The notes: generated from the sequence alone by a model not told the origin. A stretch of DNA of 50,679 nucleotides from Chloroflexi bacterium GWC2_73_18 (GCA_001794945.1 MGMJ01000044.1:1415-52093); one strand, 5' to 3'; shown: positions 8,567 through 36,949, counted from the first letter of the stretch. Program-made: numbers and translations.

Positions 8567-9715
8567 CTGGGCGGCGACATGCTCCAGGTCGAGGAGATCC
8601 GCGACGCGGCAGGCGTCGAGGCGCTCGTCCCGGCGTGGCGCCGTCTCGCCGCCGAGGCGGCCCGTTCGCCTTTCGAGTCGCCCGACTGGCTCGTCCCCTG
8701 GTGGAGGACCTACGGCGCCGGCGAGATGGAGCCGCGCCTCCTGGCCTGGCGCGCCGGCGGGCGGTTGGCCGCCGTCGCGCCGCTGGCGCGCCGCGATCTG
8801 CGGCGGTTCGGGCGGCCGATCCGCGAGCTCGCCTTCTGGGCGGGTGGCGGCTCCCTGCTGAGCGGCTGTGTCGACCTCCTCGCGGTCGAGGCCGACCGCC
8901 CCGCCGCGCTGGCGGGGCTCGGCGCCTGGCTGCAGGCGCCGGGTAACGACTGGGACGTGCTGCACTTCCTGCGCCTGCCGTACGGATCGTCGTCGGCCGG
9001 GGCGCTGCGGGCCTGGGCCGATACGGCGCCCTGGCGGTACCTCTCGCTGACCGGCGCCTTCCGCTCCGAGACCTTCACGATCGACCTGCCGGCGGACGCC
9101 GCGGGCTGGCACGGCCATCTCGGGCCCAAGGCCCGCCACAACATGCGCCGCGAGGTCCGTCTCTTCGCCCGCGAGCGGGGCGGTACGATCGAGCGGGTCG
9201 TCGACGCCGCGGCGGCCGGAGAGCTGGTGGCCGCCCTTGAGCGCCTGATGGGGCGGCACTGGGGTGACGAGGAGAAGTACTTCCGCCACGACCCCGCCTT
9301 CGGCGGCTTCGCCGTCGAGGCCCTGACGGCGATGCTCCTGAGCGGTTCGGCCTACGCCTTCGTGGCCCGCGATGGCGGGGGGATCCGGGCCTGCCTCGTC
9401 AACTTCGCCCTCGGCGGGCGGGCCGTTGCGGTCCTCATCGGGGTCGATCGCGATCCCGCCTTCCGCGCCTTCTCGCTCGGCAAGAACCTCTTCGACGCGG
9501 CGATCGACGAGGCGGTCGCGCGTGGCTGCCGGAGCTACGACTTCCTGTGGGTGGGCGGCTACAAGGAGACGTTCTGGCACGCCGCGCCGCGGAGACTGGA
9601 GAGCGGCCTGGTGGCGCGCGGGACGACCGGGGCACTGGTGGCGGCGTACGCCGCGATGCGCCGGCTCGCCCTGCCCCGCCTCGCCCGGGCGCTGCGACGG
9701 AGGCCGGCGGCATGA
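8531..9715 (+). CDS. CelD/BioF2-like GNAT-fold (Fem-like) acyl/aminoacyl transferase
   Basis: The translation ...SPFESPDWLVPWWRTYG...WDVLHFLRLP...LGPKARHNMRREVR...LERLMGRHWG...RAFSLGKNLFDAAIDEAVARGCRSYDFLWVGGYKETFW matches the CelD-like Acetyltransf_6 pattern (F.sp.W...W; ...D...G...YK..W). Possible starts are GTG 8531, GTG 8549 or ATG 8579. Confidence 0.75.
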   Translation: MSDDAPVSDDAPLGGDMLQVEEIRDAAGVEALVPAWRRLAAEAARSPFESPDWLVPWWRTYGAGEMEPRLLAWRAGGRLAAVAPLARRDLRRFGRPIRELAFWAGGGSLLSGCVDLLAVEADRPAALAGLGAWLQAPGNDWDVLHFLRLPYGSSSAGALRAWADTAPWRYLSLTGAFRSETFTIDLPADAAGWHGHLGPKARHNMRREVRLFARERGGTIERVVDAAAAGELVAALERLMGRHWGDEEKYFRHDPAFGGFAVEALTAMLLSGSAYAFVARDGGGIRACLVNFALGGRAVAVLIGVDRDPAFRAFSLGKNLFDAAIDEAVARGCRSYDFLWVGGYKETFWHAAPRRLESGLVARGTTGALVAAYAAMRRLALPRLARALRRRPAA

Positions 9716-10785
9716 GCGCGGCCGCGCCGGACCCGGGGCTCCTCGCGCGCGACGACGCCGCCTGGGACGCCTTCGTGGCGGCGGCCCCGGGAGGCTCGTA
9801 CCTGCAGACGACGGCGTGGGCCGAGGTGAAGCGCCCGAACGGCTGGACGGCCCTGCGGATCGCCACGGCCGGCCCGGCCGGTGCGGTCGTGGGCGCGCAG
9901 GTGCTGGTCCGACGCGTCCGCGGCCTGCCCTGGGCGTTCGGATACGCGCCGCGCGGGCCCGTCGTCTCCGGCGACCTCGACCGGGTCGCCCTGTCCGCCT
10001 TCACCGGCGCCCTGCGCGAGCGCGCGCGGGGCGCGCGCGTCGGCCACGTGCGCATCGACCCGGAGATCGAGGCGGACGAGCGGCTCGCCGGGGAGTTCGC
10101 CACCGCCGGCTGGCGTCCCGCGCCGGCGATCCAGCCCGAGGTCACCCGGGTCATCGACCTCGGCCGGAGCGAGGCGGAGCTCTGGTCGGACCTCCGCCCC
10201 AAGTGGCGCCAGTACGTCAACGGCGCCCGGCGTGCCGGCGTGCGCCCGGTGGAGGGCTCGGGCGAGCGGTTGGACGAGTTCTACCGTCTCTACGCCGCGA
10301 CGGCCAGGCGAGCCGGCTTCCTCTCCCGCTCGGAGGGCGCGCAGCGGCTCCTCTGGGAGGCGTTCGCGGGGCGTGGCATGGCCCGGCTGCTCTTCGCCGA
10401 GACCGCCGGCGGCGAGGCGGTGGCGACGCTCCTGCTGCTCGCCTGCGGCCGGCGCATCACCGAGGTCTACGGAGGGATGAGCGAGGCCGGGGCGGTCTCG
10501 CGCGCCAACTACCTGCTCAAGTGGGAGGCGATCCGCCGCGCCCGCGAGGCGGGCTTCGGCAGCTACGACCTGTGGGGCATGGTGACGCCGGGGATCGCCC
10601 ACTTCAAGACCGGCTTCGGCGGCCGCGAGGTCCGCTACGTGGGGGCCCGGGACCTGGTCATCGATCCCCTGGGGCGGGCCGCCTTCGAGACGGGTGTCCG
10701 GCTTCGCGCCGCGTGGGAGCGCCGCCGGCACGGCGCACGGGGAGTGCGGGACGCGGCCGGCGGTGGCGGGGAGGCCGGGGCGTGA
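9712..10785 (+). CDS. FemAB-family peptidoglycan interpeptide-bridge aminoacyltransferase (copy 1)
   Basis: The translation is WDAFVAAAPGGSYLQTTAWAEVKRPNGW...LRPKWRQYVNGARRAGV...YGGMSEAGAVSRANYLLKWEAIRRAREAGFGSYDLWG...GIAHFKTGFGG, a typical FemX/FemAB layout. ATG 9712 overlaps the upstream stop (ATGA). Confidence 0.8.
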   Translation: MSAAAPDPGLLARDDAAWDAFVAAAPGGSYLQTTAWAEVKRPNGWTALRIATAGPAGAVVGAQVLVRRVRGLPWAFGYAPRGPVVSGDLDRVALSAFTGALRERARGARVGHVRIDPEIEADERLAGEFATAGWRPAPAIQPEVTRVIDLGRSEAELWSDLRPKWRQYVNGARRAGVRPVEGSGERLDEFYRLYAATARRAGFLSRSEGAQRLLWEAFAGRGMARLLFAETAGGEAVATLLLLACGRRITEVYGGMSEAGAVSRANYLLKWEAIRRAREAGFGSYDLWGMVTPGIAHFKTGFGGREVRYVGARDLVIDPLGRAAFETGVRLRAAWERRRHGARGVRDAAGGGGEAGA

Positions 10786-11834
10786 TCGAGGAACTGGCGG
10801 CGCCGGCGGCCGAGGCGTGGGATGCATGCACCGTCCACGCTCCCGGCGGGCATGTCCTCCAGTCGTTCGCCTGGGCCGAGCAGTGTCGCGCCGACGGCTG
10901 GATCCCCCGCTTCCTCGCCTGGGACGACGGCTGCGCCGCGCTCGCCCTGACGCACCGTCTGCCGCCGCTTCCCGGCGTCACGGTCTACCTCTCGCGGGGA
11001 CCGGTGCCCGGCGCCGACCCTCCCGGGCGGCTCGCCGGGCGGATCGTCGAGGCCGGCGCCTGGCTGGCGGCGCGGGGCGCCATGGTCGTCGCCGCCGACC
11101 CCGAGGTGGGGGACGACGCGGCCTACCGGGCGGCGTTGATGGCGGGGGGCTTCCGCCCGACCGAGGAGATCCAGCCCGCCCGCCACCGGATGCGGCTCCC
11201 GCTACCGCCCGGCGCCGACGAGACGGGTGTCTGGGCGGGAGTCGGCCGCTCGACGCGCCAGCGGATCGAGCAGGCGCGGCGGGCGGGGCTCGTCGTGCGG
11301 GAGGACGCCGAGGGGACCCGGCTGGCGCGCTTCGGCGAGCTGCTCGGGGAGACGGCCGAGCGGCGCGCCTTCAGCTTCTCGCGGTCGTTCTTCCTTGCCT
11401 GGTGGCGCCGTGCCCTGGCGGCCGGCCTCGCCCGCTTCCTGGTCGTGGAGGCCGACGGACGCCTGCTGGGCGGGCTCTACCTGTACCGCCACGGCGGCCG
11501 CTACTCGACCGCCCACAGCGCCGACGACGCCGACGCCCGGCACGAGCACCCCGGAGTGATGCACCTGCTCCGCTGGGAGGCGATCCGCCTGGCGATCGCG
11601 GAAAGGGCGCCGGAGCTCGACCTCGGCGGGGTCGACGTCGCCGGTGCGCGCCGCCCGCCGCGACCGGGCGAGCCGATGTACGGCCTCTACGAGCACAAGC
11701 GGAGTTTCGGCGCCGAGTGGGTCGAGCAGGCCGGGGCCCACGAGCTGGTGGCGCGGCCCTGGCTCTACCGGCTGGCCCTCGCCGGGCGCGCGGTCCGTCG
11801 CACGCTGCGGCCGGCCGGTCGAGGAGCGCCGTGA
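10782..11834 (+). CDS. FemAB-family peptidoglycan interpeptide-bridge aminoacyltransferase (copy 2)
   Basis: The translation is WDACTVHAPGGHVLQSFAWAEQCRADGW...STRQRIEQARRAGL...YLYRHGGRYSTAHSA...PGVMHLLRWEAIRLAIAERAPELDLGGV...GLYEHKRSFGA. GTG 10782 overlaps the upstream stop (GTGA). Confidence 0.8.
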   Translation: MIEELAAPAAEAWDACTVHAPGGHVLQSFAWAEQCRADGWIPRFLAWDDGCAALALTHRLPPLPGVTVYLSRGPVPGADPPGRLAGRIVEAGAWLAARGAMVVAADPEVGDDAAYRAALMAGGFRPTEEIQPARHRMRLPLPPGADETGVWAGVGRSTRQRIEQARRAGLVVREDAEGTRLARFGELLGETAERRAFSFSRSFFLAWWRRALAAGLARFLVVEADGRLLGGLYLYRHGGRYSTAHSADDADARHEHPGVMHLLRWEAIRLAIAERAPELDLGGVDVAGARRPPRPGEPMYGLYEHKRSFGAEWVEQAGAHELVARPWLYRLALAGRAVRRTLRPAGRGAP

Positions 11835-13429
11835 ACGCCAACGCCGCCGGCCGCGAGGCGCGCCCGCTGGGCGAGCTCATCGGCCTGCTCGCGGCGCGGG
11901 GCCACCTGCGCAACGTCCGCGCGGGACCGGCGGCCGGACCGGCGCAGCCGGCCACCGTGGCCGCCGTGCCGGTGCGGGGCGTGGCCTACGACTCGCGCCG
12001 CGTCGGACCGGGGACGCTCTTCGTCGCCGTCCCCGGCCTCCACGTCGACGGCCACGAGTACGCTCCGGGGGCGGTCGCGGCGGGCGCCAGCGCGCTCGTG
12101 GTCGAGCAGCCGCTCGAGGCGCTCGCCGTGCCGCAGCTCGTCGTGAAGCGGAGCCAGTTCGCCCTTGCCACGGCGGCCGCCTGGTGGGAGCGGTGGCCGG
12201 CGCGGGAACTGGGCGTGATCGGGGTCACCGGCACGGACGGCAAGACGACGACGACCTTCCTGGTGGCGGCCATCCTCGCCTCCGCCGGGCTGCCGGCGGG
12301 ACTGGTCGGCACGGTCGAGATCGGGATCGGCGGGCGCCGCGCGCCCAACGAGGCGCGCACGACGACGCCCGAGGCGCCCGAGCTGCAGGGCTTCCTGCGT
12401 GCCATGGTCGAGGCGGGTGATCGCTTCGCCGTCCTCGAGGCGACCTCCCATGGACTCGCCCTCGAGCGGGTCGGCGAGATCGCCTTCGACGTGGGCGTGC
12501 TCACCAACCTGACTCATGAGCACCTGGAGTTCCACGGCACCCACGAGGCCTACCGCACCGCCAAGCGGAGCCTCTTCGAGCGGCTCGCCGTGACCGCCGA
12601 GAACCCCGACAAGGGCTGGGGCAAGCAGGCCGTCCTCAACCGCGACGACCGCTGGTTCGCGGAGTTCGCGGCGGCCGCCCGCGACAGCGGTGCCCGGATC
12701 CTCACCTACGGCGCCGACCCCGCCGCCGACGTCCGCGTGTCCGCGGTCGAGGAGGATGCGCGGCACCTGCGCCTGGGGATCGCCACGGCGCGCTGGCGGG
12801 GCGACGTGGCGCTCCGTCTCGCCGGCCGCTTCAACGTCCACAACGCGCTGGCGGCAGCCGCGGTCGGGGAGGCGCTGGGCCTCGACCCGGGGGCGATCCG
12901 CGCCGGCCTCGAGAGCGTCGCCGGGGTGCCGGGGCGGATGGAGCGGATCGACCTCGGCCAGCCGTTCGGCGTCATCGTGGACTACGCCCACACGCCCGAC
13001 TCGCTCGAAAAGGTGCTCCAGATCCTGGCGCCCGTGGCGGCCGCGGCGGGAGGCGGGCTGATCGCCGTCTTCGGCTCGGCCGGCGAGCGCGACGTCGTGA
13101 AGCGCCCGCTGATGGGCCGCATCGCCGGCGATCGTGCCCGCCTCGTGGTCGTGACCGACGAGGACCCGCGGCTCGAGGACCGTCAGGCCATCCTGGAGCA
13201 GATCGCCGGGGGAGCGCGCGCGGCGGGGCGCGTCGACGGGCGGGACCTGCTCGTCGTCGCCGACCGCGACGCGGCGATCGCGGCCGCTTTCGAGCGGGCG
13301 CGGCCGGGCGATGTCGTGCTCCTTGCAGGAAAGGGGCACGAGGGCTCGATCATCTACGGCACCGAAAAGCGCCCCTGGGATGACCGGGAGGCGGCCCGCC
13401 GGGCCCTCCGCGCCCTGGGCCACGGGTGA
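11831..13429 (+). CDS. murE: UDP-N-acetylmuramoyl-L-alanyl-D-glutamate--diamino-acid ligase MurE
   Basis: The evidence is the Mur-ligase P-loop GVTGTDGKTTT, the central motif HLEFHGT and the C-terminal motif TDEDPR in place of the DAP-type DNPR motif (the Arg is retained). GTG 11831 overlaps the upstream stop (GTGA). Confidence 0.9.
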   Translation: MNANAAGREARPLGELIGLLAARGHLRNVRAGPAAGPAQPATVAAVPVRGVAYDSRRVGPGTLFVAVPGLHVDGHEYAPGAVAAGASALVVEQPLEALAVPQLVVKRSQFALATAAAWWERWPARELGVIGVTGTDGKTTTTFLVAAILASAGLPAGLVGTVEIGIGGRRAPNEARTTTPEAPELQGFLRAMVEAGDRFAVLEATSHGLALERVGEIAFDVGVLTNLTHEHLEFHGTHEAYRTAKRSLFERLAVTAENPDKGWGKQAVLNRDDRWFAEFAAAARDSGARILTYGADPAADVRVSAVEEDARHLRLGIATARWRGDVALRLAGRFNVHNALAAAAVGEALGLDPGAIRAGLESVAGVPGRMERIDLGQPFGVIVDYAHTPDSLEKVLQILAPVAAAAGGGLIAVFGSAGERDVVKRPLMGRIAGDRARLVVVTDEDPRLEDRQAILEQIAGGARAAGRVDGRDLLVVADRDAAIAAAFERARPGDVVLLAGKGHEGSIIYGTEKRPWDDREAARRALRALGHG

Positions 13430-14043
13430 GCGAACGGCTCCGCTCGTCGTCGCCACGTCCCGCTCGGCCCGCGGCCCCGCCCGGCTCGCCGACCCTCGTC
13501 ATCGTGGCCGGCCTCCCGGGGCGCGGCAAGAGCTGGCTGGCGCGCCATCTCGCCGCCGCCCACGCGCGGCGCCCGGGCGCCCGCCCGCTCGTCGTCGTCG
13601 AGACGGATCGGATCCGTCTCGAGCTGACCGGCGGCCGGCCGCTCCACACGCCGGGCGAGAACGCGGCCGTCCATGCCGAGGCCCGTCGCCGCCTGGCCGC
13701 GGCGATCGCCGCCGGCGCCCACGCGGTCATCGACGCGACCTCGCTGGCGAGCGCCCACCGGGCGCAGCTGCGCCGGCTCGCCGATCGTTCGGGCGCGCGC
13801 ACCCTCCTCGCCTGGTGCGAACTCGAGGACGCGGTCGCCGCCCGACGCTTCGCCCTCCGTCGCGGACGTCTGGACGCGGCCGACGTTTCCACCGCCGACG
13901 AGGCGGTCGCCGAACGGATGGCCGCGGCGGTGGAACGGCCGCGGCGCGCCCTCCACGTCCGCCCGTCGAGCGCGCGCGCAGCGGTGCGAACGCTCGCCGC
14001 CGACCTGGCCGGGCTGCAGGAGGCGGAAGAGGCGTTGCTATGA
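13426..14043 (+). CDS. P-loop ATPase/kinase (AAA_33-like)
   Basis: A Walker A motif, VIVAGLPGRGKSWLA, sits near the N-terminus of a small (~205 aa) protein. GTG 13426 overlaps the murE stop (GTGA). I recognise no more specific family. Confidence 0.65.
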   Translation: MSERLRSSSPRPARPAAPPGSPTLVIVAGLPGRGKSWLARHLAAAHARRPGARPLVVVETDRIRLELTGGRPLHTPGENAAVHAEARRRLAAAIAAGAHAVIDATSLASAHRAQLRRLADRSGARTLLAWCELEDAVAARRFALRRGRLDAADVSTADEAVAERMAAAVERPRRALHVRPSSARAAVRTLAADLAGLQEAEEALL

Positions 14044-26568: not shown

Positions 26569-27633
26569 ATGAACCCCTTCGTCGAGCGGCTCTCGCGCTC
26601 GGCCGCCGGTTTCTTCGACGTGGTGACGGTCTACCTGGGCGACCGGCTCGGCTACTACCGCGCCCTCGCCGACGTCGGGTCGCTGACCTCGGTGGAGCTG
26701 GCGGAGCGGACCGCAACCGCGGAGCGCTACGCACGCGAGTGGCTCGAGCAGCAGGCGTCGACCGGGATCCTGGAGGTCGCCCGGCCATCGGCCGACCCGC
26801 TCGCCCGGCGCTACCGTCTGCCGGCCGCTCATGCCACCGTGCTCCTCGACCGCGACAGCCTCGACTACCTGGCGCCCATGCCCCGCTCGCTCGCCCGCGC
26901 GGTGCGCTTCCTGCCCGCCGTCCTGGAGGCGTTCCGCACCGGCCGGGGGGTCGAGGAGGGCGCGTACGCCGAGGCCGATCTGGACGAGCTGGCCGAGGAC
27001 AACCGGCCCGCCTTCCTGATCCGCCTGGGACGCGAGTGGCTCCCCGCTATCCCCGGGGTCCACGCGCGCCTCGGGGCCGAGCCGCCCGCTCACGTGGCAG
27101 ACATCGGCTGCGGGACGGGCTGGTCGGCGATCGCCATGGCCCAGGCGTACCCGAAGGCGCGGATCGATGGCCTCGACCTCGACGAGACGCGGATCGCCAG
27201 GGCCCTGCGGAACGCCGCCGATGCCGGGCTCTCCGGGCGGGTCCGTTTCGAGGCGCGAGACGCGGCGCGCCTGCCGGATGGCGGGCCATACGACCTGGTG
27301 ACCGCCTTCGAGACGATCCATGACATGGCGCGGCCGGTGGATGTGCTGCGCGCGGTCCGCGGCGCGCTGCGTGAGGACGGGGCGATGCTCATCGCCGACG
27401 AGCGGGTCGCCGACACGTTCACCGCCCCGGCGGCCGAGATCGAGCAGCTCGTCTACGGCTGGAGCGTCCTCTCCTGCCTCCCGGAGGGGATGGTCGGGCC
27501 CGACCCGGCCGGTACCGGCGCGGTGATGCGCCCGGCGACCCTGCGACGCTACGCGGAGGAGGCGGGCTTCCGGTCGTTCGAGGTCCTGCCCATCGATTAC
27601 GAGCTGTGGCGCTTCTACCTGCTGCGCCCGTGA
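26569..27633 (+). CDS. Class I SAM-dependent methyltransferase with an N-terminal winged-helix (dimerisation-like) domain
   Basis: The N-terminal wHTH-like region reads LGYYRALADVGSLTSVELAERTATAERYAREWLEQQASTGIL. SAM motif I is VADIGCGTGWSAIAMA and the post-I acidic residue is in DGLDLD. Motif II/III region: YDLVTAFETIHDM...LREDGAMLIAD. Confidence 0.8.
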   Translation: MNPFVERLSRSAAGFFDVVTVYLGDRLGYYRALADVGSLTSVELAERTATAERYAREWLEQQASTGILEVARPSADPLARRYRLPAAHATVLLDRDSLDYLAPMPRSLARAVRFLPAVLEAFRTGRGVEEGAYAEADLDELAEDNRPAFLIRLGREWLPAIPGVHARLGAEPPAHVADIGCGTGWSAIAMAQAYPKARIDGLDLDETRIARALRNAADAGLSGRVRFEARDAARLPDGGPYDLVTAFETIHDMARPVDVLRAVRGALREDGAMLIADERVADTFTAPAAEIEQLVYGWSVLSCLPEGMVGPDPAGTGAVMRPATLRRYAEEAGFRSFEVLPIDYELWRFYLLRP

Positions 27634-28083: not shown

Positions 28084-30864
28084 ATGCAGCCGATCCCCCA
28101 CCTTCCCGCCGACGAGATCCGGCGGCGCTTCGTCGCGTTCTTCGCCGCGCGCGGCCACGAGGTCGTCCCGAGCGCCGGCCTGGTGCCCGCCGGCGACCCG
28201 ACCCTCCTCTTCACCAACTCGGGCATGGTCCAGTTCAAGGACGTCCTGACCGGCCGCGAGACGCGCTCCTACAGCCGCGCCGTCGACTACCAGCGCTGCC
28301 TCCGCGTCGCCGGCAAGCACAATGACTTCGAGGAGGTCGGGCGAACGCCGCGCCACCACACCCTCTTCGAGATGCTCGGCAACTGGAGCTTCGGCGATTA
28401 CTTCAAACGCGAGGCGATCGCCTGGGCCTGGGAGCTCCTCACCGATGGCTACGGCATCCCCGGCGATCGGCTGGCCGCCACCGTCTATGGCGACGACGAG
28501 GAGGCCTACGCCGCCTGGCACGAGATGATCGGCCTGCCACCCGAACGGATCGCCCGCTGGGGTGACATCGCCTCCGGCGACGAGAAGAACTTCTGGCGGA
28601 TGGCCGACACGGGCCCGGCCGGTCGCTGCAGCGAGGTCCACTTCGACCGCGGCGCCGAGTTCAGCGAGGGCGACTTCTGCATCCCCGACCACTCGGAGGT
28701 CTGCCCGCGCTGGCTGGAGGTCTGGAACCTCGTCTTCATGGAGTTCGAGCGCTTCGCCGACGGGACGCTGGAAGAGCTCCCCTTCAAGAGCGTCGACACC
28801 GGCATGGGCCTCGAGCGCCTCGCCAGCGTCGTCCAGGGCGCCGGCTCCAACTACGACACCGACCTTTTCCTGCCGCTCCACGACCGGATGCGCGACCTGC
28901 TCGGCCACGAGCCGGCCGAGTTCGAGTCGCAGCGCTTCAGCTACCAGGTGATCGCCGACCACGCTCGCGCCGTCACCTTCCTGGTCGCCGACGGCGTGAC
29001 GCCTTCCAACGAGGACCGCGGCTACGTCCTGCGCCGGATCCTCCGCCGGGCCGCCCGTCACGGCCGGCTGCTGGGCTACGCGAAACCGTTCCTGGCCGAG
29101 ATCGCCGACGTCGTCGTCGACGTCATGGCGCCGGCCTACCCGTACCTGGCGGACGAGCGCCCCCGGATCATCGACGTGATCCGCCGCGACGAGGCGCTCT
29201 TCGCGCGGACGCTCGATGCGGGGGTGAAGCATCTTGAGTCGGCGATCCTCAAGGCCTACGCGCTCCGGCCCCATCGGATAGGTGCGTCGCACATCCCCGA
29301 GGCCATGGTCGGTAGGCGCGCGGAGGAGCTGCCCGCAAGTGCACCGGTGATGGACGGGGCCGACGCCTTCCGCCTCCACGACACCTACGGCTTCCCCGTG
29401 GACCTCACCGTCGAGCTGGCGGCCGAGCGCGGCGTGCGTGTCGACCGGCCGGGCTTCGAGGAGGCGCTCGCGGAGCAGCGGGCGCGTTCGCGCGCGGGCA
29501 CGAAGGGAGAGCTGGCGCGGCTGGCGCAGATGACGCAGCTCTACGAACAGCTGGCGCGGCGGGCCGGTGAGACACGCTTCGTCGGCTACGAGACGACCGC
29601 CCACGCCGGCCGCGTCCTGGCGATCCTGCGCGACGGGATCGAGTACGAGGAGCTCGCCGGCGAGGGCGCTGCCGAGGTCATCCTCGACGTCACCCCCTTC
29701 TACGGCGAGGGCGGTGGGCAGATCGGCGACCGCGGGGCGCTCCGCGGCGGGGGCCCGGAGGCGGCCGCCGTCTTCGAGGTCGAGGACACGCAACGGCCGG
29801 TGGTGGGACTGATCGTCCACCGCGGACGGCTCGCCGGCTCGCTCCGGGTCGGCCAGACCGTCCACGCCGAGGTCGACGCGGGGCGGCGCGCCCGCACGAT
29901 GCGCAACCACACCGGCACGCACCTCCTCCACCGCGCCCTGCGCAACGTGGTCGGCCCGGCCGCCCGCCAGGCGGGGTCGCTCGTGACTCCGCAGTACCTC
30001 CGTTTCGACTACCCGCTCGACCGCCCGCTGGCGGGCGAGGAGCGCCTTGCCATCGAGGACGAGGTGCGCCGCATCATCCGCGAGGACCGGCCCGTCACTC
30101 CCAGGCAGGTGACCATGGGCGAGGCGGTCGAGCTGGGCGCGGACGCGTTCTTCGACGAGAAGTACGGCGAGACGGTGCGGATCGTCGAGGTCGCCGGCTA
30201 CAGCCGCGAGCTGTGCGGTGGGACGCACTGCGCCGCGACGGGCCAGGTCGGCGGCTTCGTCATCGTGGGCGACCGACCCATCGGTTCGGGCATGCGCCGC
30301 GTCGAGGCGCTCACCGGCGACGGAGCGGACGCGCTCGCCCGCGGCCGCCTGGCCGCCCTCGACCGGGTCGCCGAGCTGGTCGGCGCGCCGGACCCGTCGG
30401 CAGCAGCCGAGCGCGTGGCCATGCTGCAGGGGCGCCTCCGCGAGCTGGAGCGTCGCCTGCGCGCCGGCGGGGGCGGCCTCCCGAAGCCGGCCGAGCTGGC
30501 GCGCAGGGCGGACGAACTGGCGCCCGACGTCCGCTGGGTCTCGGCCGAGGTCGACCTCGGCTCGGTCGAGGAGCTGAAGGCCTACGCCCGCGACGTGCGC
30601 GGCGCGCTCCCCTCGGGCGTCATCGCCCTCGTCCTCGCCGGCGATGAGCCGCAGCTCTTCGTGACGGTCAGCGAGGACCTCGTGGCACGAGGCCTTTCGG
30701 CCGCCGAGCTGGTGCGCGTCGGGGCGGCGGCGATCGGCGGCCGCGGCGGCGGCCGGCCGGAGATGGCCCAGGGGAAGGGGCGGGGTCGCCAACGCGCCGG
30801 CGAGGCCCTCGCGGCGATGCGCGATACGGCGACCGCGGGCCTGGCGGGCGCCAGCGGGGCCTGA
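28084..30864 (+). CDS. alaS: Alanine--tRNA ligase
   Basis: The evidence is FTNSGMVQFKDV, RVAGKHNDFEEVG, the editing-domain motifs HTGTHLLH and CGGTHC, and the C-terminal DHHA1 motif GGRGGGRPEMAQGKG. At 926 aa it is longer than typical AlaRS because of a ~20-25 aa insertion before AFRLHDTYGFP. Confidence 0.95.
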   Translation: MQPIPHLPADEIRRRFVAFFAARGHEVVPSAGLVPAGDPTLLFTNSGMVQFKDVLTGRETRSYSRAVDYQRCLRVAGKHNDFEEVGRTPRHHTLFEMLGNWSFGDYFKREAIAWAWELLTDGYGIPGDRLAATVYGDDEEAYAAWHEMIGLPPERIARWGDIASGDEKNFWRMADTGPAGRCSEVHFDRGAEFSEGDFCIPDHSEVCPRWLEVWNLVFMEFERFADGTLEELPFKSVDTGMGLERLASVVQGAGSNYDTDLFLPLHDRMRDLLGHEPAEFESQRFSYQVIADHARAVTFLVADGVTPSNEDRGYVLRRILRRAARHGRLLGYAKPFLAEIADVVVDVMAPAYPYLADERPRIIDVIRRDEALFARTLDAGVKHLESAILKAYALRPHRIGASHIPEAMVGRRAEELPASAPVMDGADAFRLHDTYGFPVDLTVELAAERGVRVDRPGFEEALAEQRARSRAGTKGELARLAQMTQLYEQLARRAGETRFVGYETTAHAGRVLAILRDGIEYEELAGEGAAEVILDVTPFYGEGGGQIGDRGALRGGGPEAAAVFEVEDTQRPVVGLIVHRGRLAGSLRVGQTVHAEVDAGRRARTMRNHTGTHLLHRALRNVVGPAARQAGSLVTPQYLRFDYPLDRPLAGEERLAIEDEVRRIIREDRPVTPRQVTMGEAVELGADAFFDEKYGETVRIVEVAGYSRELCGGTHCAATGQVGGFVIVGDRPIGSGMRRVEALTGDGADALARGRLAALDRVAELVGAPDPSAAAERVAMLQGRLRELERRLRAGGGGLPKPAELARRADELAPDVRWVSAEVDLGSVEELKAYARDVRGALPSGVIALVLAGDEPQLFVTVSEDLVARGLSAAELVRVGAAAIGGRGGGRPEMAQGKGRGRQRAGEALAAMRDTATAGLAGASGA

Positions 30865-32126
30865 TGGACCTCCTGCGTCGGCTCTGGCGGCGCGACGAGC
30901 TGGGACGGCTCGACGCCTGCACGGCGTTGGACGTGGGCACCGAGTTTGCCAAGGCGCTCGTCTTCGCCGTCGACGAGGCGGGCCACGGCGAGGTTCGCGG
31001 GGTCGGCCGCCAGCGCCAGGGCCTCAGCCACATGCAGTCCGGCACGGTGGCCGACATCGCCGCCGTCGTCGACAATTGCGCGGTCGCCCTCCAGGCGGCC
31101 GAGGAGATGGCGGGCTTCCGTCCGACGCAGGTCGTCATCGGCATCGCCGGGGAGCTGGTCAAGGGCTTCACCACCGTCCGCTCGCAGGAACGCAAGCGCC
31201 CCGAACAGCCGATCGGCGAGGCGGAGCTGAGCCGGCTGATCGAGACGATCCAGCAGGAAGCGCAGCGAACCGCCGAGAAGGCGATCACCTGGGAGACCGG
31301 GCTCCCCACCGTGGACGTCCGTCTCGTCCACGCGGCCGTCACCGGCGCGACCGTCGACGGCTACCCGGTCACCAGCCCGATCGGCTTCCAGGGGCGTCAC
31401 CTCCAGGTCGGCATCTTCGACGCCTACGCGCCGCTCGTCCATCTCGGCGCCCTCCAGTCGGTGGCGGCGCAGCTCGACCTGGACCTCCTCGCCGTCGTCG
31501 CCGAGCCCTACGCCGTGGCGCGCTGTCTCGGCGGTGTCGGGGTCCAGCAGTCGGGCGGCCTCTTCGTCGATGTCGGCGGCGGCACGACCGACGTGGCGCT
31601 GGTGCGGGGCGGCGGCATCGAGGCGACCCGGATGTTCGCATTGGGCGGTCGCGCCTTCACCCGGTCGATCGCCGACGGGCTGGAACTCCCCTTCGCCCGC
31701 GCCGAGGCGCTCAAGATCGACGTCGCGCGCGGCCTCGACGTCGCCGAGCGCGCTCGGGTGGAGGCGATCGTGGCCGAGGACGTCGCCGTCTGGTCGGCCG
31801 GCGTCGAGCTCGTCCTGGAGGAATTGTCCGGCGAGGAGCTGCTGCCGAACCGGATCTTCCTCTGCGGCGGCGGCGCGGGGCTGCCGCAGATCCCGGCCGC
31901 GCTCGGGGATGCCCGTTTCGCCGACCGGCTCCCGTTCGGACGGCCGCCCGAGGTGCGCGTCCTGGCGCCCGACCAGGTCGAGTCGATCGGGGACGTGACC
32001 GGGCTGCTCGTCGATCAGCAGGATGTCACCCCGCTGGCGCTCGCCTACCAGGCGATCGAGCTGCACGCGGAGGAGGCGCCGCTCGACGCGACGCTGCGGC
32101 GCGTCCTGCGCGCCATGAAGGTGTAG
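30864..32126 (+). CDS. FtsA-like actin-fold ATPase (SHS2/1C-type insertion, C-terminal amphipathic helix)
   Basis: Phosphate-1 is LDVGTEFAKALVF, phosphate-2 is FVDVGGGTTDVALV and the adenosine motif is IFLCGGGAGLPQI. An inserted domain follows GIAGELVKG, as in FtsA. The C-terminus is LDATLRRVLRAMKV. The ATG overlaps the alaS stop (TGATG). Confidence 0.75.
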   Translation: MDLLRRLWRRDELGRLDACTALDVGTEFAKALVFAVDEAGHGEVRGVGRQRQGLSHMQSGTVADIAAVVDNCAVALQAAEEMAGFRPTQVVIGIAGELVKGFTTVRSQERKRPEQPIGEAELSRLIETIQQEAQRTAEKAITWETGLPTVDVRLVHAAVTGATVDGYPVTSPIGFQGRHLQVGIFDAYAPLVHLGALQSVAAQLDLDLLAVVAEPYAVARCLGGVGVQQSGGLFVDVGGGTTDVALVRGGGIEATRMFALGGRAFTRSIADGLELPFARAEALKIDVARGLDVAERARVEAIVAEDVAVWSAGVELVLEELSGEELLPNRIFLCGGGAGLPQIPAALGDARFADRLPFGRPPEVRVLAPDQVESIGDVTGLLVDQQDVTPLALAYQAIELHAEEAPLDATLRRVLRAMKV

Positions 32127-32128
32127 GG

Positions 32129-33721
32129 GTGGGCGTTCTCTACCTCGAGATCGATGACGAGATCACCTCGGCGGCGGCAAGGCTGCGGGCGGCCGCAGCC
32201 GGGCCGGTGGCGCTCGTCCTGCCGGCCGGCTCGCATCTGGCCAGCAGCCGCATCAACTTCCGGCTCCTGGCGCGCGAGGCGGCGGCGCGCGGCCAGGCGC
32301 TCGCCATCGTGTCGCCCGAGGCGGCGGCGCGGGCGCTCGCGCTGGCGGCGGCGCTGCCGGCCTACGCCACGGTGCGGGAGTACGAGGCGGCGGCCGCGGA
32401 GGGGTCGGCGGCGGCGCCGGGCGCGGCCGCCGGCGGGCCGGTCCCGACGGTCGAGGCCGAGGCGCCGGGCGAGGAGGAGGCGGCGCCGGCGGCGGCCGGT
32501 GCCCGCCCGGCCGCGGCGGCGGCACTGCCGGTCGTGCGCGGCGAGGCGCGGCGCGGGGAGCGGCCGTCCCGCCGCCGCTGGCTGGCGGTCGGGCTCCTCC
32601 TGCTCATCGTCGCCGGTGGCGGCGGTGGCGCGGCCGCCTACTTCGTCGTCCCCGAGGCGCGGGTCACGGTGACCCCGCGCCTGGAGGCGATCGGGCCGGT
32701 CAGCTTCAGCGTGACCGCCGATCCGGAAGCGACCGCGGTCGACGCCGCGGCGGGGATCGTGCCGGCCGAGCGGCCGACGCTGCGGGTGGAGGCGAGCGGC
32801 ACCTACGAGGCGAGCGGCGTCCGCGTGGACGAGACCAAGGCGTCGGGCGTGGCGCGCTTCCGCAGCGAGAACACCCTCTTCGACGTCACCGTACCGGCGG
32901 GGACACGCCTCTCGACCGCTTCCGGCGCCGGCTTCGTGACCACCGCCGCGGCGGTCGTCCCGAAGGCCTCGTTCGCCACCGGTCCCACCGCCCGGGACGT
33001 CACCATCGAGGCGATCGATCCCGGCCCCGCCGGGAACGTCCCCGCCGGAGCGATCACGCGCGAGCCCTCCACGCTCGCCGCCGCGCTGGTCACCGTCTCC
33101 AACCCCTCGGCCACGACCGGCGGGTCGCGCACCGAGGTGAAGCTCATCGCCCAGGAGGACTATGATGCCGCGGTCGTCGACCTCCAGGCGAAGCTGGACG
33201 AGGCCTTCCGGGCCCGCCTCGTCACCACCACGACGACACCCGAGGGTTCACGCATCTTCCCTGACACCGCGCGCCTGGGGGCCGCCACCTTCGACCCCGA
33301 GCCGGCCGTCGTCGTCGGCAGCGAGGCGGAGTCCTTCGTACTGGTCGCCAGGGCGAACGGCCGGGCGAGCGCGGTCGACCTCGACCAGATCGACCGGCTC
33401 GGCGCCGAGCGGCTGCGGGGCGAAGTGGCGTCCGGCCTCGTCCTGCTCGAGGACTCACTGAAGGTGGAGTGGAGTCCGGGGGGTGGATCAGACCCGAGCC
33501 AGGTCGTCTTCGAGGTGACCGCGCAAGGGAGTGGCTACCGCCGGATCGACGCCGCCGCACTCAAGGCGGCGATCGTCGGCCGGCCGCTCGGCGAGGCGCT
33601 GGGGATCCTCGCCGGCTATGGCGAGGCGCGGGTCGAGCTGACGCCCGACTGGTTCGGGCGGATCCCCTCGCTCGACTTCCGGGTCGTCGTCGAAGTCGCG
33701 CCGGTGCCGGAGGCGCCGTGA
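32129..33721 (+). CDS. Bitopic membrane protein: conserved cytoplasmic N-domain, Ala/Pro/Glu-rich linker, one TM segment, extracytoplasmic baseplate-J/gp47-like domain
   Basis: The N-domain reads LYLEIDDEITSAAARLRAAAAGPVALVLPAGSHLASSRINFRLLAREAAARGQALAIVSPE. The TM segment is WLAVGLLLLIVAGGGGGAAAYFVV. The ectodomain (GVARFRSENTLFDVTVPAGTRLSTASGAGFVTT...VTIEAIDPGPAGNVPAGAITREPS...VTVSNPSATTGGSRTE) fits the Baseplate_J pattern (v.iPaGt.l.t..G..f.t...v.v.A...G..gNv.ag.I...v.N....tGG). GTG 32129 lies 2 nt after the FtsA-like stop, and its own stop overlaps the ruvX GTG. Confidence 0.7.
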   Translation: MGVLYLEIDDEITSAAARLRAAAAGPVALVLPAGSHLASSRINFRLLAREAAARGQALAIVSPEAAARALALAAALPAYATVREYEAAAAEGSAAAPGAAAGGPVPTVEAEAPGEEEAAPAAAGARPAAAAALPVVRGEARRGERPSRRRWLAVGLLLLIVAGGGGGAAAYFVVPEARVTVTPRLEAIGPVSFSVTADPEATAVDAAAGIVPAERPTLRVEASGTYEASGVRVDETKASGVARFRSENTLFDVTVPAGTRLSTASGAGFVTTAAAVVPKASFATGPTARDVTIEAIDPGPAGNVPAGAITREPSTLAAALVTVSNPSATTGGSRTEVKLIAQEDYDAAVVDLQAKLDEAFRARLVTTTTTPEGSRIFPDTARLGAATFDPEPAVVVGSEAESFVLVARANGRASAVDLDQIDRLGAERLRGEVASGLVLLEDSLKVEWSPGGGSDPSQVVFEVTAQGSGYRRIDAAALKAAIVGRPLGEALGILAGYGEARVELTPDWFGRIPSLDFRVVVEVAPVPEAP

Positions 33722-34176
33722 CGCGCGTGCTGGGGATCGACCTGGGGGAGCGCCGCATCGGGATCGCCGTCTCCGATGACGAGGCACGAGCGGCACGGCC
33801 GCTGGCGACGCTCCGGCGGGGGTCGCCCGGGGCCGACGCGCGTGCGCTGGTAGGGCTCGCTGGCGAGCACGGTGCCGTGGAGCTGGTCGTCGGCCTGCCC
33901 CTCGAGGCGGATGGGAGCGACGGTCCGCAGGCCCGGCTGACGCGGGAGTGGGCGGCGGCCCTCGGCGCCGCGAGCGGGCTTGCGGTCTGCTTCCGCGACG
34001 AGCGCGAGACGAGCCTGCGCGCGGAGGCGCGGCTGGGAGCGCCGCGGCGTGGCCGGGCCGGTGGGCCGCCGACCGCGGCGCAACGCGGTGCCAGGCGCGC
34101 CCGGGTGGACCGCGAGGCGGCCGCGCTCATCCTCCAGGCGGAGCTGGACGGGCGTCATGGGGTCTCCGGCCGGTGA
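33718..34176 (+). CDS. ruvX: Putative pre-16S rRNA nuclease / Holliday-junction-resolvase-like YqgF
   Basis: The translation is VLGIDLGERRIGIAVSD...ELVVGLPL..DGS.GPQA...W...DERETS..A. GTG 33718 overlaps the upstream stop (GTGA). Confidence 0.85.
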   Translation: MTRVLGIDLGERRIGIAVSDDEARAARPLATLRRGSPGADARALVGLAGEHGAVELVVGLPLEADGSDGPQARLTREWAAALGAASGLAVCFRDERETSLRAEARLGAPRRGRAGGPPTAAQRGARRARVDREAAALILQAELDGRHGVSGR

Positions 34177-34298: not shown

Positions 34299-35516
34299 AT
34301 GCGCCAGGCGGGCGGCGACGGTGGCGGGCGTTTCGGCTGGCTCCGCTTCCTCATCTTCGCCGTCGGCCTGGCGGCGACCGTCGTCGTCCTCTTCCTCGCC
34401 ATCGCCGGTCCCGCCATCGGCGACGCCTTCCGGGACCTGGCGAGCAGGAACCCCGAGGCGCTGCGCCTCCCCTTCGTGGCCGACATCGTCCGCAACGAGC
34501 TGGGACCGGACCTTGCCGAGCCGGCCGGCACCGACCCCACCGAGATCCGCTTCGAGGTGCTTCCCGGCTTGACCGCCGTCGAGATCGGGGCGCAGCTCGA
34601 GGAGGCCGGCCTGCTTCGTGACGGGCTCGCCTTCACCTACCTGGTCGTCACCCAGGGCCTCGCCGGCGAGATCGAGGCGGGGACCTACAAGTTGCGTGCC
34701 ACCATGACGCCGGCCGAGATCGTCAAGCGACTTCAGCAGGCCCCGATCGTGACGGTGACGGTGCCGCTCCGCGAGGGGCTGCGTGTCGAGCAGGTGACGG
34801 CGAAGCTCCTCACACTGCCGCTGGAGATGGACGTCGCCATGTTCTACGGACTGGTGCAGCACCCCTCGGAGCAGTTGCTGGCCGACTACCCGTGGATCGG
34901 CCTGCCGGCCGGGCGAAGCCTGGAGGGATACCTCGCCCCCGCCACCTACGAGGTCGAGCCCGACATCGAGCCGGGGGCGCTCCTGCGCCTGATGCTCGAC
35001 CGCTTCCACGACGAGATCGGCCAGGAGACCCTCGACGAGATCACCGCCCAGGGCCGCAGCCTGTACGAGATCCTGACGCTCGCCTCGATCGTGGAGCTGG
35101 AGACGCCGCTCGACGAGGAGCGCCCGCTCATCGCCGGCGTCTACCAGAACCGGCTCGACCGCGAGATGCTCCTCAACGCCGATCCGACCGTCCTCTATGC
35201 GCGCGACACGGTCGAGCTGGAGAAGGTGACGCTCCCCGACTGGGTCAGCTACTACTTCTGGAACCGCCTCGACGTGCCGCTGGCGGAGTACCAGGTCCCC
35301 GAGGCCCTGCAGGGTTACCAGACCTACCAGGTCCGTGGGCTGATCCCCGGGCCGATCTGCACCCCCACGCGCCCCTCGATCGCGGCGGCCATCGCCCCCG
35401 ACACGGAGACCGGCTTCCTCTACTTCGTCGCCATCCCCGACGGCGGCGGCAAGCACGCCTTCGCCAAGACGCTCGAGGAGCACGAGGCGAACCTCAGGAA
35501 GTACGGCTACCTGTGA
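34299..35516 (+). CDS. mltG: Endolytic murein transglycosylase MltG (YceG family)
   Basis: The evidence is an N-terminal TM segment (WLRFLIFAVGLAATVVVLFLAIA), a LysM-like region, the catalytic region ILTLASIVELE, and YQTYQVRGLIPGPICTP (the family pattern is YNTY..GLPPGPI.nP). An alternative in-frame GTG start is at 34194. Confidence 0.85.
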   Translation: MRQAGGDGGGRFGWLRFLIFAVGLAATVVVLFLAIAGPAIGDAFRDLASRNPEALRLPFVADIVRNELGPDLAEPAGTDPTEIRFEVLPGLTAVEIGAQLEEAGLLRDGLAFTYLVVTQGLAGEIEAGTYKLRATMTPAEIVKRLQQAPIVTVTVPLREGLRVEQVTAKLLTLPLEMDVAMFYGLVQHPSEQLLADYPWIGLPAGRSLEGYLAPATYEVEPDIEPGALLRLMLDRFHDEIGQETLDEITAQGRSLYEILTLASIVELETPLDEERPLIAGVYQNRLDREMLLNADPTVLYARDTVELEKVTLPDWVSYYFWNRLDVPLAEYQVPEALQGYQTYQVRGLIPGPICTPTRPSIAAAIAPDTETGFLYFVAIPDGGGKHAFAKTLEEHEANLRKYGYL

Positions 35517-35619: not shown

Positions 35620-35649
35620 TTGACCGGCGGCGCACAATGGGCCCATCCT
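35620..35649 (+). promoter_or_regulatory. Possible sigma-70-type promoter for the repeat-protein gene (TTGACC, 18 nt, CATCCT)
   Basis: A near-consensus -35 (TTGACC, 35620-35625) lies in a 260-nt intergenic region. The -10 is weak. The downstream gene has a GAGGGAGG Shine-Dalgarno 9 nt before ATG 35777. Confidence 0.25.
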
Positions 35650-35776
35650 GGGCGGGAGGCGTCGACGCGCGGTCCATCCATCAGCCACGGTCGCCCCCCT
35701 GACCGCGCCGAGCCACTGGCGAGCCCGGCCCGCCCGGCTGGGTGGGGCTGCGCGCCCCCGAGGGAGGGTCCTCGCC

Positions 35777-36949
35777 ATGGCCATCGAGACCGCCGTTCCC
35801 CGTTCCCGTCGCGCCCTCCTCGCCGCCTCGCTGGGCGGCCTCGCCGCCCTGGCGGCACAGGCCCTGGGGCGTCCGTTGCCGACCCGTGCCGCCAACGGCG
35901 ACCCGGTGACCGTGGGCGGCACGTTGAGCGGCACGGCGATCACCAAGATCGCCAACAGCACCAACAGCAACACCGTCTTCTGGGGCGCCAGCAGCAGCGG
36001 GGTCGGCGTCTACGGCACCAGCAGCTCCTCCAGCGGCGTCCGCGGCGAGAGCAGCGGCGGGCGCGGCGTCTACGGCCTCAGCGGCGGTGACACCGGTGTC
36101 TTTGGCGAGAGCAGCGCGGTCGGGGTCTACGGCACCAGCAGCGGCATCGGCGAAAACGGGGTCGGCGTCTACGGCTACAGCAACTCCGCCTACGGCGTCC
36201 TTGGCCAGAGCGGCTCCTTCACCGGCGTCTACGGCATCAGCACGAGCGGGGTCGGCGTCGTGGGCGAGAGCAGCGCGGTCACCGGCGTCGAAGGCACCGC
36301 CACAAGTGGGGTCGGCGTTTCCGGCACGAGCAGCTCCTCCTACGGCGTGTACGGCACGAGCAGCTCCCTCTACGGCGTCTACGGCATCAGCACCTCGTCC
36401 TACGGCGTCCTCGGCCGGAGCCTCGCCCCGGACCGGCCGGCGATCGTCGGCCGGTCGAATGGCGACAACACGGGCATCCTCGGCTACTCGGGTTCCGGCG
36501 CCGTGCCCACCTCGCCCACCAAGACGGGCGTCTTCGGCTACGCCGTGCAGGACGCGGCGTCGCGCGGGGTGACGGGGCGCACGACCGAGGGCCGCGGCGT
36601 CAACGGGATGGCCACGACGGGCCGTGGCGTCTACGGCTACGCCAGCTCCGGGGTCGGCGTCTACGCCACCTGCGGGACCGGGGGGACCGCCCTCCAGGCC
36701 CAGGGCCCCGTCCACTTCAGCAGCGCCGGGCTGGCAGCCATCGCCAGCGGTACGAGCGACGTGACCGTGACGCCGGGGATCGATCTCGGCAGCGGCACCA
36801 AGGTGCTGGTCACGCTCATGGGCAACCCCGGCAGCACCGCCACCGTCGTCCACCGCGTCGCCGTGCACCCGCTCGCCGACTCGTTCACCGTCTACCTCAC
36901 CGGCACCGCCACTGGCGACACGAGGGTCGCCTGGTTCGTCATCAGCTAG
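35777..36949 (+). CDS. Tat-signal secreted protein with ~21 decapeptide S-x-x-G-V-(Y)-G repeats and a conserved ~90-aa C-terminal domain ending WFVIS (uncharacterised family)
   Basis: A twin-arginine signal is present: MAIETAVPRSRRALLAASLGGLAALAAQALG...TRA/AN. Residues ~72-297 are repeats such as SSSGVGVYGT, SSSSSGVRGE, SSGGRGVYGL, SGGDTGVFGE...SSSSYGVYGT, SSSLYGVYGI, STSSYGVLGR. The C-terminal domain reads VHFSSAGLAAIASGTSDVTVTPGIDLGSGTKVLVTLMGNPGSTATVVHRVAVHPLADSFTVYLTGTATGDTRVAWFVIS*. Two paralogous remnants lie at 21043-22416. Confidence 0.85.
   Translation: MAIETAVPRSRRALLAASLGGLAALAAQALGRPLPTRAANGDPVTVGGTLSGTAITKIANSTNSNTVFWGASSSGVGVYGTSSSSSGVRGESSGGRGVYGLSGGDTGVFGESSAVGVYGTSSGIGENGVGVYGYSNSAYGVLGQSGSFTGVYGISTSGVGVVGESSAVTGVEGTATSGVGVSGTSSSSYGVYGTSSSLYGVYGISTSSYGVLGRSLAPDRPAIVGRSNGDNTGILGYSGSGAVPTSPTKTGVFGYAVQDAASRGVTGRTTEGRGVNGMATTGRGVYGYASSGVGVYATCGTGGTALQAQGPVHFSSAGLAAIASGTSDVTVTPGIDLGSGTKVLVTLMGNPGSTATVVHRVAVHPLADSFTVYLTGTATGDTRVAWFVIS
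35990..36415 (+). repeat. Coding tandem array of 14 units of ~30 bp (AGCAGC-N8-10-GGCGTCTACGGCAnC)
   Basis: Read directly from the sequence. The units are 27-42 bp, mostly 30 bp, and recur with GGCGTCTACGGC cores. More degenerate units continue to about 36667. Confidence 0.85.

Follow-up and report, generated by a model that had tools for sequence, protein, structure and literature searches.

A 50,679-nucleotide (nt) stretch of DNA from Chloroflexi bacterium GWC2_73_18, of the class Limnocylindria, is referred to here as the window. Between alaS and ruvX-mltG it carries a pair of adjoining genes, of which gene 1 encodes an FtsA/PilM-class actin-fold ATPase and gene 2 a bitopic membrane protein with a phage baseplate-like outer domain. 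Our results lead us to view this pair as apparently a deeply conserved cellular module, undescribed so far and probably related to the cell envelope. The same slot holds the pair in hundreds of Chloroflexota, in candidate phyla radiation (CPR)/Patescibacteria and in at least one Bacillota-like genome, so that it looks like a cellular system not described before, and no description of it was found in the literature searched. A role in the envelope, the wall or division is suggested by genomic context and by rate covariation among the encoded proteins.

The pair and its neighbours lie on the (+) strand. The gene for alanyl-tRNA synthetase (AlaRS), alaS (28084..30864), is an open reading frame (ORF) whose neighbouring counterpart in homologous loci bears tRNA-synt_2c, tRNA_SAD and DHHA1 domains, and it is followed by gene 1 (30864..32126; 420 amino acids, aa), gene 2 (32129..33721; 530 aa, GTG start), ruvX/yqgF (33718..34176; Pfam RuvX 7.6e-29, TIGR00250) and mltG, encoding the YceG endolytic transglycosylase (~34299..35516; Pfam YceG 2.5e-67, TIGR00247), which starts with GTG at 34281/34284 or with ATG at 34299. 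The TGA of alaS (30862-30864) has one base in common with the ATG of gene 1, the TAG of gene 1 is separated by 2 bases from the GTG of gene 2 at 32129, and the TGA of gene 2 (33719-33721) overlaps the ruvX GTG at 33718 (GTGA); these ORF coordinates agree with the first-pass annotation, which had described a two-gene module without intergenic space. A Shine-Dalgarno-like AAGGTG lies inside the 3' end of gene 1, ahead of gene 2. The content of guanine plus cytosine (GC) is ~74% across the whole window, with no compositional break at the locus; since GC is that high, a scan for promoters and terminators from alaS to pepQ, which found none, is uninformative.

The position of the pair was surveyed at the alaS slot in 84 Limnocylindria-type loci and in loci from other lineages, with ~90 loci carrying the pair. 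The order (mnmA ..) alaS-gene 1-gene 2-ruvX-mltG-pepQ-efp is kept in all 84 of the Limnocylindria-type loci, and related orders recur elsewhere: alaS-gene 1-Baseplate_J (932 aa)-ruvX-mltG-bacA in Ktedonobacteraceae, SLT-alaS-gene 1-532 aa protein-ruvX-mltG in Berkelbacteria, with mreB nearby, alaS-gene 1-545 aa protein-ruvX in a Patescibacteria genome and alaS-gene 1-Baseplate_J-ruvX-mltG-aroE on a hot-spring contig. In a genome of 35% GC the order is gene 1-680 aa protein-ftsK-rodZ-like, and on another contig a 553 aa protein, a RuvX-YceG fusion and a LysM/CHAP hydrolase follow gene 1 at a distance of 2.5 kb. The partner proteins without annotation are full-length, collinear gene 2 homologues (BLASTP 3e-21; hhalign 99% probability over 500-540 columns). 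The pair, whose linkage to its neighbours the first-pass annotation had left to such a survey, is thus anything but sporadic in the alaS-ruvX-mltG slot, which it occupies in Limnocylindria-type, Ktedonobacteraceae, CPR and Bacillota-like loci alike.

The Bacillota-type locus (L093, 6669-11370) reads alaS-IreB-gene 1-Baseplate_J-aldo/keto reductase-ruvX-DUF1292-mltG-U32 peptidase, an order of Bacillus type, with IreB yrzL-like and DUF1292 yrzB-like. The pair stands here between IreB and ruvX/DUF1292, so that the pair and the small Firmicutes genes occur side by side, neither replacing the other. The aldo/keto reductase is an insertion after gene 2 in this locus, and in the fused arrangement mentioned above (L092, 12487-14082) RuvX and YceG/MltG form one 531-aa protein directly after the gene 2 homologue, followed by the LysM-LysM-CHAP hydrolase.

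More than 230 gene 2 homologues were detected, and at least 473 GTDB species genomes encode a gene 2 relative, the best 80 all belonging to Limnocylindria-type Chloroflexota; when a profile built from a diverse gene 2 alignment was used, the match list was again saturated by Limnocylindria. When gene 1 was compared exhaustively with 1.84 billion cluster representatives, 324 clusters fell below 1e-30, the full-length relatives running from 50% to 29% identity. The gene 1 sequence is identical to protein P0121 of Chloroflexi bacterium GWC2_73_18. Close homologues are labelled Limnocylindria or Limnocylindrales, and wider gene 1 relatives come, by source name, from Ktedonobacteraceae, Ca. Berkelbacteria, Ca. 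Dormibacteria and other Patescibacteria. The most distant relative examined, from Peregrinibacteria (29% identity), is located elsewhere in its genome, near pilin genes, with no gene 2-like gene among its called neighbours. Several Limnocylindria-type loci, L059 among them, bear the NCBI labels Candidatus Sulfotelmatobacter, 'uncultured Anaerolineaceae' or Thermomicrobiales; as they are just as window-like as the Limnocylindrales loci, mislabelling or mis-binning is suggested. An apparent fusion of gene 1 and gene 2 (P0331) was rejected: both alaS and gene 1 are broken on its contig (L095; ENA contig_18811), and the fusion is probably an indel artefact because this is a frameshifted long-read assembly. 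Long-read contigs of this kind generate spurious 'fusion' proteins in clustered protein databases.

Judged by profile and by model, gene 1 is an FtsA/PilM-class protein with FtsA as its closest fold. It matches Pfam FtsA (PF14450) above the cut-off at E 8e-15 and MreB_Mbl at E 5e-7. The AlphaFold2 model (predicted local distance difference test, pLDDT, 89.3; predicted template-modelling score, pTM, 0.88) finds as its nearest Foldseek neighbours the FtsA proteins of Vibrio, E. coli, Xenorhabdus, S. aureus and T. maritima (E 7.9e-31 to 1e-22; TM-score 0.66-0.82; whole-chain superposition at TM-score 0.71-0.82 over ~390-410 columns), the best match being the FtsA-FtsN(1-29) complex 7q6i. PilM is second closest (E ~1e-22 to 1e-18), followed by EutJ, with MreB and Hsp70 far behind. 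From this ranking of FtsA and then PilM it follows that the modelled protein has an FtsA/PilM architecture, including an inserted subdomain that is probably equivalent to their 1C (residues 89-190, 31128..31433), beta-beta-alpha-beta-beta in the model.

The ATP motifs that the first-pass annotation had read in gene 1 are borne out by six residues that are invariant in a 29-sequence cross-lineage alignment. They comprise D23 and G25 of the phosphate-1 motif ALDVGTEFAKA (residues 21-31, 30924..30956), D236, G238 and T242 of the phosphate-2 motif FVDVGGGTTDVALV (residues 234-247, 31563..31604) and G335 of the adenosine-binding motif FLCGGGAGLP (residues 332-341, 31857..31886), in which G336 and L340 are nearly invariant. 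The highest amphipathic moments of the protein fall at its two ends, at residues 1-11 and 406-420, and match or surpass the moment of the membrane-targeting sequence of E. coli FtsA. At the C-terminus the helix PLDATLRRVLRAMKV (residues 406-420, 32079..32123; modelled as helix over 406-418) has an amphipathic moment (muH) of 0.61-0.78 and stands at the extreme C-terminus in all lineages aligned, so that model, moment and alignment agree with the amphipathic helix noted in the first pass. At the N-terminus a basic amphipathic helix, DLLRRLWRRDE (residues 2-12, 30867..30899), is predicted, and an MxFWRR-like motif is kept there in the homologues.

Gene 1 does not, on its sequence, qualify as an FtsA equivalog, because it scores below the cut-off of TIGR01174 (97.4 bits; cut-off 175.85), the SHS2_FTSA Pfam profile was undetected at E <= 0.1 and its identity to solved FtsA proteins is 14-20%. 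PRK09472 likewise stays below its cut-off (42.2 bits; 409), as do the PilM profiles PilM_2 (PF11104; 14.5 bits against 27) and TIGR01175 (29.1 bits against 133). Orthologues are labelled 'cell division protein FtsA' by JGI, and gene 1 is named just 'FtsA domain-containing' by NCBI. Two full-length metagenomic members of the gene 1 family (P0261 and P0266; 41% and 37% identity) have long N-terminal extensions, one with a caspase (Peptidase_C14) and the other with a TIR domain, which may mean that conflict or cell-death systems have taken up some paralogues of the family.

The AlphaFold2 model of gene 2 (pLDDT 88.9) runs from an N-terminal domain through a linker and a transmembrane helix to an ectodomain, and in it we find the ~90-residue cytoplasmic domain, low-complexity Ala/Pro/Glu spacer and single transmembrane segment of the first-pass annotation. 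The N-domain (residues 1-92, 32129..32404; pLDDT ~95) is an alpha/beta domain of the order beta-alpha-beta-alpha-beta-alpha, and the Ala/Pro/Glu-rich linker (residues 93-148, 32405..32572), modelled at pLDDT < 50 over residues 98-149 and taken as disordered, varies in length between homologues, with heavily gapped alignment columns. The transmembrane helix (residues 149-174, 32573..32650; model helix 149-172) coincides with the hydropathy maximum and is preceded by RRGERPSRRR, a pattern repeated in eight divergent homologues or lineages; under the positive-inside rule, this basic stretch places the N-domain in the cytoplasm. The N-domain is the best-conserved part of gene 2, being kept in CPR, in Ktedonobacteraceae and in the Bacillota-like locus, and the transmembrane helix and cytoplasmic domain are retained in all lineages. 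As a profile, the N-domain had zero significant matches among Pfam families and Protein Data Bank (PDB) sequences; STAS appeared only as a sub-threshold hint, also at rank 45 in Foldseek against the PDB. A match to designer pentatricopeptide repeats was rejected as a repeat artefact, and the HTH_25 and RodZ_C profiles were undetected on gene 2.

The ectodomain spans residues 175-530 (32651..33718; modelled over ~176-525 and mostly beta) and is collinear in Foldseek with J/gp47-type wedge proteins. Its core, a Baseplate_J-type beta-barrel at residues 232-336 (32822..33136), matches Baseplate_J (PF04865) at E 1.2e-9 (38.3 bits; cut-off 21.1) and the PHROG_6 'baseplate wedge subunit' at 3.9e-13, and GNV and TxGG barrel motifs are common to gene 2, Mu gp47 and phi812 ORF62 in the profile alignment. 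In the Pfam comparisons, FtsA for gene 1 and Baseplate_J for gene 2 were thus both significant, and the Baseplate_J core reported by the first-pass annotation stands, with the size of the outside domain to be corrected from ~330 to ~355 residues.

Foldseek against the PDB matched the ectodomain to five baseplate structures, among them those of cyanophage A-1(L) (8kea_d, E 7.3e-9), phi812 (9euf), phiCD508 (9gb2) and Mu gp47 (9ki1), at E 7e-9 to 1e-4 over ~340-380 columns (340-390 for the long alignments as a whole), with TM-score <= 0.25 and root-mean-square deviation (rmsd) > 30 A. Among the predicted viral structures of BFVD, 45 matches below 1e-3 were found, nearly all of them baseplate J or wedge proteins. 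Taken alone, the barrel superposes tightly (rmsd 2.7-3.6 A over 105-117 columns), and for this reason we regard the ~110-residue modelled barrel as securely homologous to baseplate J proteins; the rest of the ectodomain is probably wedge-like. The barrel of GlxA also matches (Pfam GlxA, PF21110, E 0.0066, below cut-off; Foldseek E ~7e-6, 21-23% identity). The first-pass annotation had called the fold domesticated, a term that we do not carry over: the data do not establish a phage-to-cell direction, and the same barrel occurs in GlxA.

Phage structural genes (tail, sheath, tube, spike) and the baseplate partners gp25/W and gp48/I were absent from the window and from all homologous loci. Searches of 50,697 phage records by tblastn and of IMG/VR returned zero relatives, and PADLOC gave zero matches. 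The window does contain a Xer-type tyrosine recombinase of the Pfam 'Phage_integrase' family (5719-6963). These findings are in line with the first-pass view that the pair is no phage remnant, a view that we hold with high confidence.

Conservation was expressed as the median identity to the window proteins over the 84 loci. Gene 1, at 72%, is as conserved as elongation factor P (EF-P; efp, 76%) and stands ahead of alaS (65%), the gene 2 N-domain (59%), ruvX (58%), mltG (47%) and the gene 2 ectodomain (38%); the cytoplasmic parts, gene 1 and the gene 2 N-domain, are far more constrained than the ectodomain. A mirror-tree analysis of 43 loci, using partial correlations with the divergence of alaS, pepQ and efp controlled, gave 0.56-0.62 for the ectodomain and MltG, 0.50 for gene 1 and the gene 2 N-domain, 0.41-0.43 for the gene 2 N-domain and MltG, and 0.18-0.32 for gene 1 or the ectodomain with any other partner, RuvX included. 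This ranking, which puts the gene 2 N-domain with gene 1 and the ectodomain with MltG, constitutes weak evidence for two such partnerships. The contrast in constraint and the covariation both lend the mechanism proposed below some support in addition to that of gene order.

Our results lead us to the following proposal. The module is chromosomal and vertically inherited, either of cellular origin or in long cellular use. Terminal amphipathic helices would hold gene 1 to the inner membrane face, where it would engage the conserved, folded cytoplasmic N-domain of gene 2. Gene 2, crossing the membrane once, would display a wedge-like ectodomain in the wall compartment, and there the ectodomain may serve as scaffold or regulator in concert with MltG, the glycan-strand terminase of the same operon. 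A nucleotide-dependent filament or oligomer would in this way be linked to extracytoplasmic peptidoglycan remodelling during growth or division, following the logic of MreB-RodZ, with FtsA-FtsN and PilM-PilN as looser parallels. Whether the pair does couple a cytoplasmic actin-like ATPase to cell-wall remodelling across the membrane in this RodZ/MreB-like manner is, by analogy, a question on which we consider the scales evenly balanced.

Several points weigh against this picture. Guilt by association is ambiguous because alaS and ruvX, which share the operon, are not envelope genes, and gene 1 might simply be the divergent FtsA of its lineage. The N-terminal helix of gene 1 is modelled at low confidence (pLDDT < 50), and beyond the barrel the likeness of the ectodomain to baseplate proteins is collinear, without the rigid superposition that a higher TM-score would indicate. 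In the mirror-tree analysis residual phylogeny lets every pair through the permutation test, leaving the ranking alone as informative, and fast-evolving extracytoplasmic proteins may covary trivially.

A bolder form of the proposal is that the pair represents an ancient, unrecognised and probably essential morphogenetic system of Terrabacteria, in which an FtsA paralogue would drive or position a wedge-fold extracytoplasmic assembly together with MltG. Its scope would include Chloroflexota (Limnocylindria, Ktedonobacteria, Dormibacteria), CPR/Patescibacteria and some Bacillota-like lineages. We offer this form tentatively and lean against it as it stands; if true, the wedge fold of contractile tails would here have its first use in cells other than for injection, or else the pair would include a cellular relative of the fold's ancestor.

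Of the alternatives, the one that survives best is that gene 1 is a genuine, divergent and relocated FtsA, with gene 2 as a divisome partner (an FtsQ/DivIB or FtsN analogue) and part of a Z-ring anchor. FtsA is indeed the closest fold, before PilM, the C-terminal amphipathic helix is like the FtsA membrane-targeting sequence, the very high conservation is typical of core cytoskeletal proteins, ftsK adjoins the pair in one lineage and the JGI orthologue label speaks of cell division. The equivalog scores, however, fall far short (97 against 176 bits for TIGR01174, 42 against 409 for PRK09472), SHS2_FTSA is undetected, identity to solved FtsA proteins is low and NCBI goes only as far as an FtsA domain. 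In keeping with the first-pass annotation, which had placed gene 1 outside a dcw/ftsZ context, the window showed no ftsZ or ftsQ, and in the ~90 loci no ftsZ, ftsQ or dcw genes adjoin the pair. Bacillota almost always have ftsA beside ftsZ, and for this reason gene 1 in the Bacillota-type locus is probably an extra paralogue. We consider the relocated FtsA unlikely.

Less probable still is that the pair serves type IV pili, competence or some other trans-envelope fibre as a PilM-like platform, with gene 2 in the place of PilN/PilO as the component for membrane alignment. PilM is the second-best fold, PilM_2 and TIGR01175 match weakly, NCBI calls the Berkelbacteria and Peregrinibacteria relatives 'pilus assembly protein PilM', and a prepilin peptidase gene follows the ruvX-mltG-aroE run of the hot-spring locus, three genes downstream of the pair. 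CPR bacteria depend heavily on type IV pili. Yet the PilM profile scores are far under their cut-offs, gene 2 begins with a folded 90-residue domain instead of a short PilN-type peptide, and no pilN, pilO, pilP, pilQ, pilB, pilC, pilT or pilin genes adjoin the pair, be it in the window or in the other loci with the pair; the pilin-adjacent Peregrinibacteria relative is the distant one without an adjacent called gene 2.

We give about the same low weight to a role with the non-envelope neighbours, be it the tethering or regulation of AlaRS, RuvX-dependent ribosome maturation at the membrane or another function away from the wall. Overlapping stop and start codons couple the pair to alaS and ruvX, not to mltG, and alaS and ruvX flank it in most lineages. 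It is not obvious, however, what an extracytoplasmic domain of 355 residues would do in translation, the covariation of gene 1 or the ectodomain with RuvX is low, and in one lineage the pair stands by ftsK and a rodZ-like gene instead. Moreover, Bacillus and actinobacteria have the alaS-ruvX-mltG order with the pair absent.

Finally, an origin of the pair from a decaying prophage or a former contractile injection system, or a role in defence against phages, can draw on the Baseplate_J and PHROG_6 matches, the baseplate-like fold of gene 2 and the TIR or caspase fusions of some gene 1 family members, but it is effectively refuted by the absence of tail genes from the window and every homologous locus, the empty phage-record, IMG/VR and PADLOC searches, strong purifying selection, a position among housekeeping genes that stays fixed from phylum to phylum, and a GC content of the pair that does not depart from that of the window.

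The remainder of the window is housekeeping in character: topA, the Xer-type recombinase, murJ, two FemAB-family genes, a Mur ligase, relA, hisS, aspS, a cysteine desulfurase-type gene, mnmA, pepQ, efp, xseA and dxs. At ~5719-13430 (+) lies a partial peptidoglycan-precursor cluster with the Xer-type tyrosine recombinase, the MurJ lipid II flippase, two FemAB/Acetyltransf_6 genes and the Mur ligase, the gene boundaries being approximate in this very GC-rich stretch. Because MurJ, FemAB-family and Mur ligase genes are encoded upstream, the source organism probably makes a wall with interpeptide bridges. Between mnmA and a small ORF 5' of alaS, at 26569-27633 (+), is the gene for an S-adenosylmethionine-dependent methyltransferase with an Rv2258c-like winged helix-turn-helix N-domain, missing from that position in the related loci with genes listed. 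A variant of the c-di-GMP-II-GAG riboswitch (RF03169; 61.6 bits against a gathering score of 40) occupies 35646-35739 (+), and just downstream, at 35777-36949 (+), is the gene for a Gly/Ser-rich repeat protein of 390 aa, which has a signal of the twin-arginine type (SRRALL) and zero Pfam matches. Riboswitch and repeat protein form a 1.5 kb cassette between mltG and pepQ, genes that are only ~0-180 nt apart in nearly all related Limnocylindria loci.

Little is known of the cell biology of Chloroflexota and CPR/Patescibacteria, which are abundant but for the most part uncultured. With EF-P-like conservation and a place in a core operon next to mltG, the pair is a strong candidate for a missing part of envelope growth or division in these bacteria, and as a genomic character it may be common to Chloroflexota and CPR and link the two. 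The occurrence of a baseplate-J fold on a membrane anchor among housekeeping genes broadens the uses of this fold beyond phage tails, the type VI secretion system and contractile injection systems, and prompts one to ask whether it passed from viruses to cells or from cells to viruses. Current labels such as 'cell division protein FtsA', 'PilM' and 'baseplate J/gp47 family protein' can distort counts of divisomes, pili and prophages in metagenome-assembled genomes.

Among known systems, MreB-RodZ offers the closest layout: an actin-fold ATPase on the inner face and a bitopic partner with a ~90-residue folded N-domain, a disordered linker, one transmembrane helix and a beta-rich outer domain, in a wall-related genomic context. 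In contrast to MreB, gene 1 belongs to the FtsA/PilM class and has an insert probably of the 1C type, and in contrast to RodZ, the N-domain of gene 2 is alpha/beta and not an XRE-type helix-turn-helix, while its ectodomain has a baseplate-wedge-like fold and not that of RodZ_C. Carrier genomes have separate rodZ-like and mreB genes, and the likeness of gene 2 to RodZ is, as an analogy, one of topology and logic only.

The first-pass annotation had likened the layout to PilM-PilN or FtsA with its membrane partners. The FtsA/PilM plus bitopic-partner arrangement holds. Gene 2 itself is closer to RodZ than to PilN or FtsN, because its cytoplasmic domain is folded and ~90 residues long, and PilN and FtsN use short peptides. 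FtsA-FtsN/FtsQ shares with the pair the closest solved fold, the ATP motifs, the C-terminal amphipathic helix and a bitopic partner, but gene 1 lies under the equivalog cut-offs, is never by ftsZ in the loci seen and has a partner with a folded domain. PilM-PilN shares an actin-like ATPase gene directly followed by that of a bitopic partner, but gene 2 is ~3 times the size of PilN and of unrelated architecture (a 92-residue domain and a ~55-residue linker), with no linked pilus genes.

Like the wedge proteins (baseplate J, gp47, T4 gp6 and TssF-type), gene 2 scores above the Baseplate_J cut-off, has the GNV/TxGG barrel and gives a collinear 3Di alignment with the proteins of A-1(L), phi812, phiCD508 and Mu. 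Unlike them, it is membrane-anchored, extracytoplasmic and fused to a cytoplasmic domain instead of being a soluble particle subunit, and it resides in a housekeeping operon without tail partners or a close phage relative, with the global TM-score already noted. Domain 2 of GlxA, a radical copper oxidase of Streptomyces, is the same small barrel in a cellular, membrane-associated protein of a Terrabacteria lineage, but the barrel alone is in common, GlxA being an enzyme of different overall architecture. Taken together, these comparisons place the pair in the 'actin-like ATPase plus bitopic adaptor' kind, in which the combination of an FtsA paralogue-like ATPase with a membrane-anchored wedge-like protein would be new.

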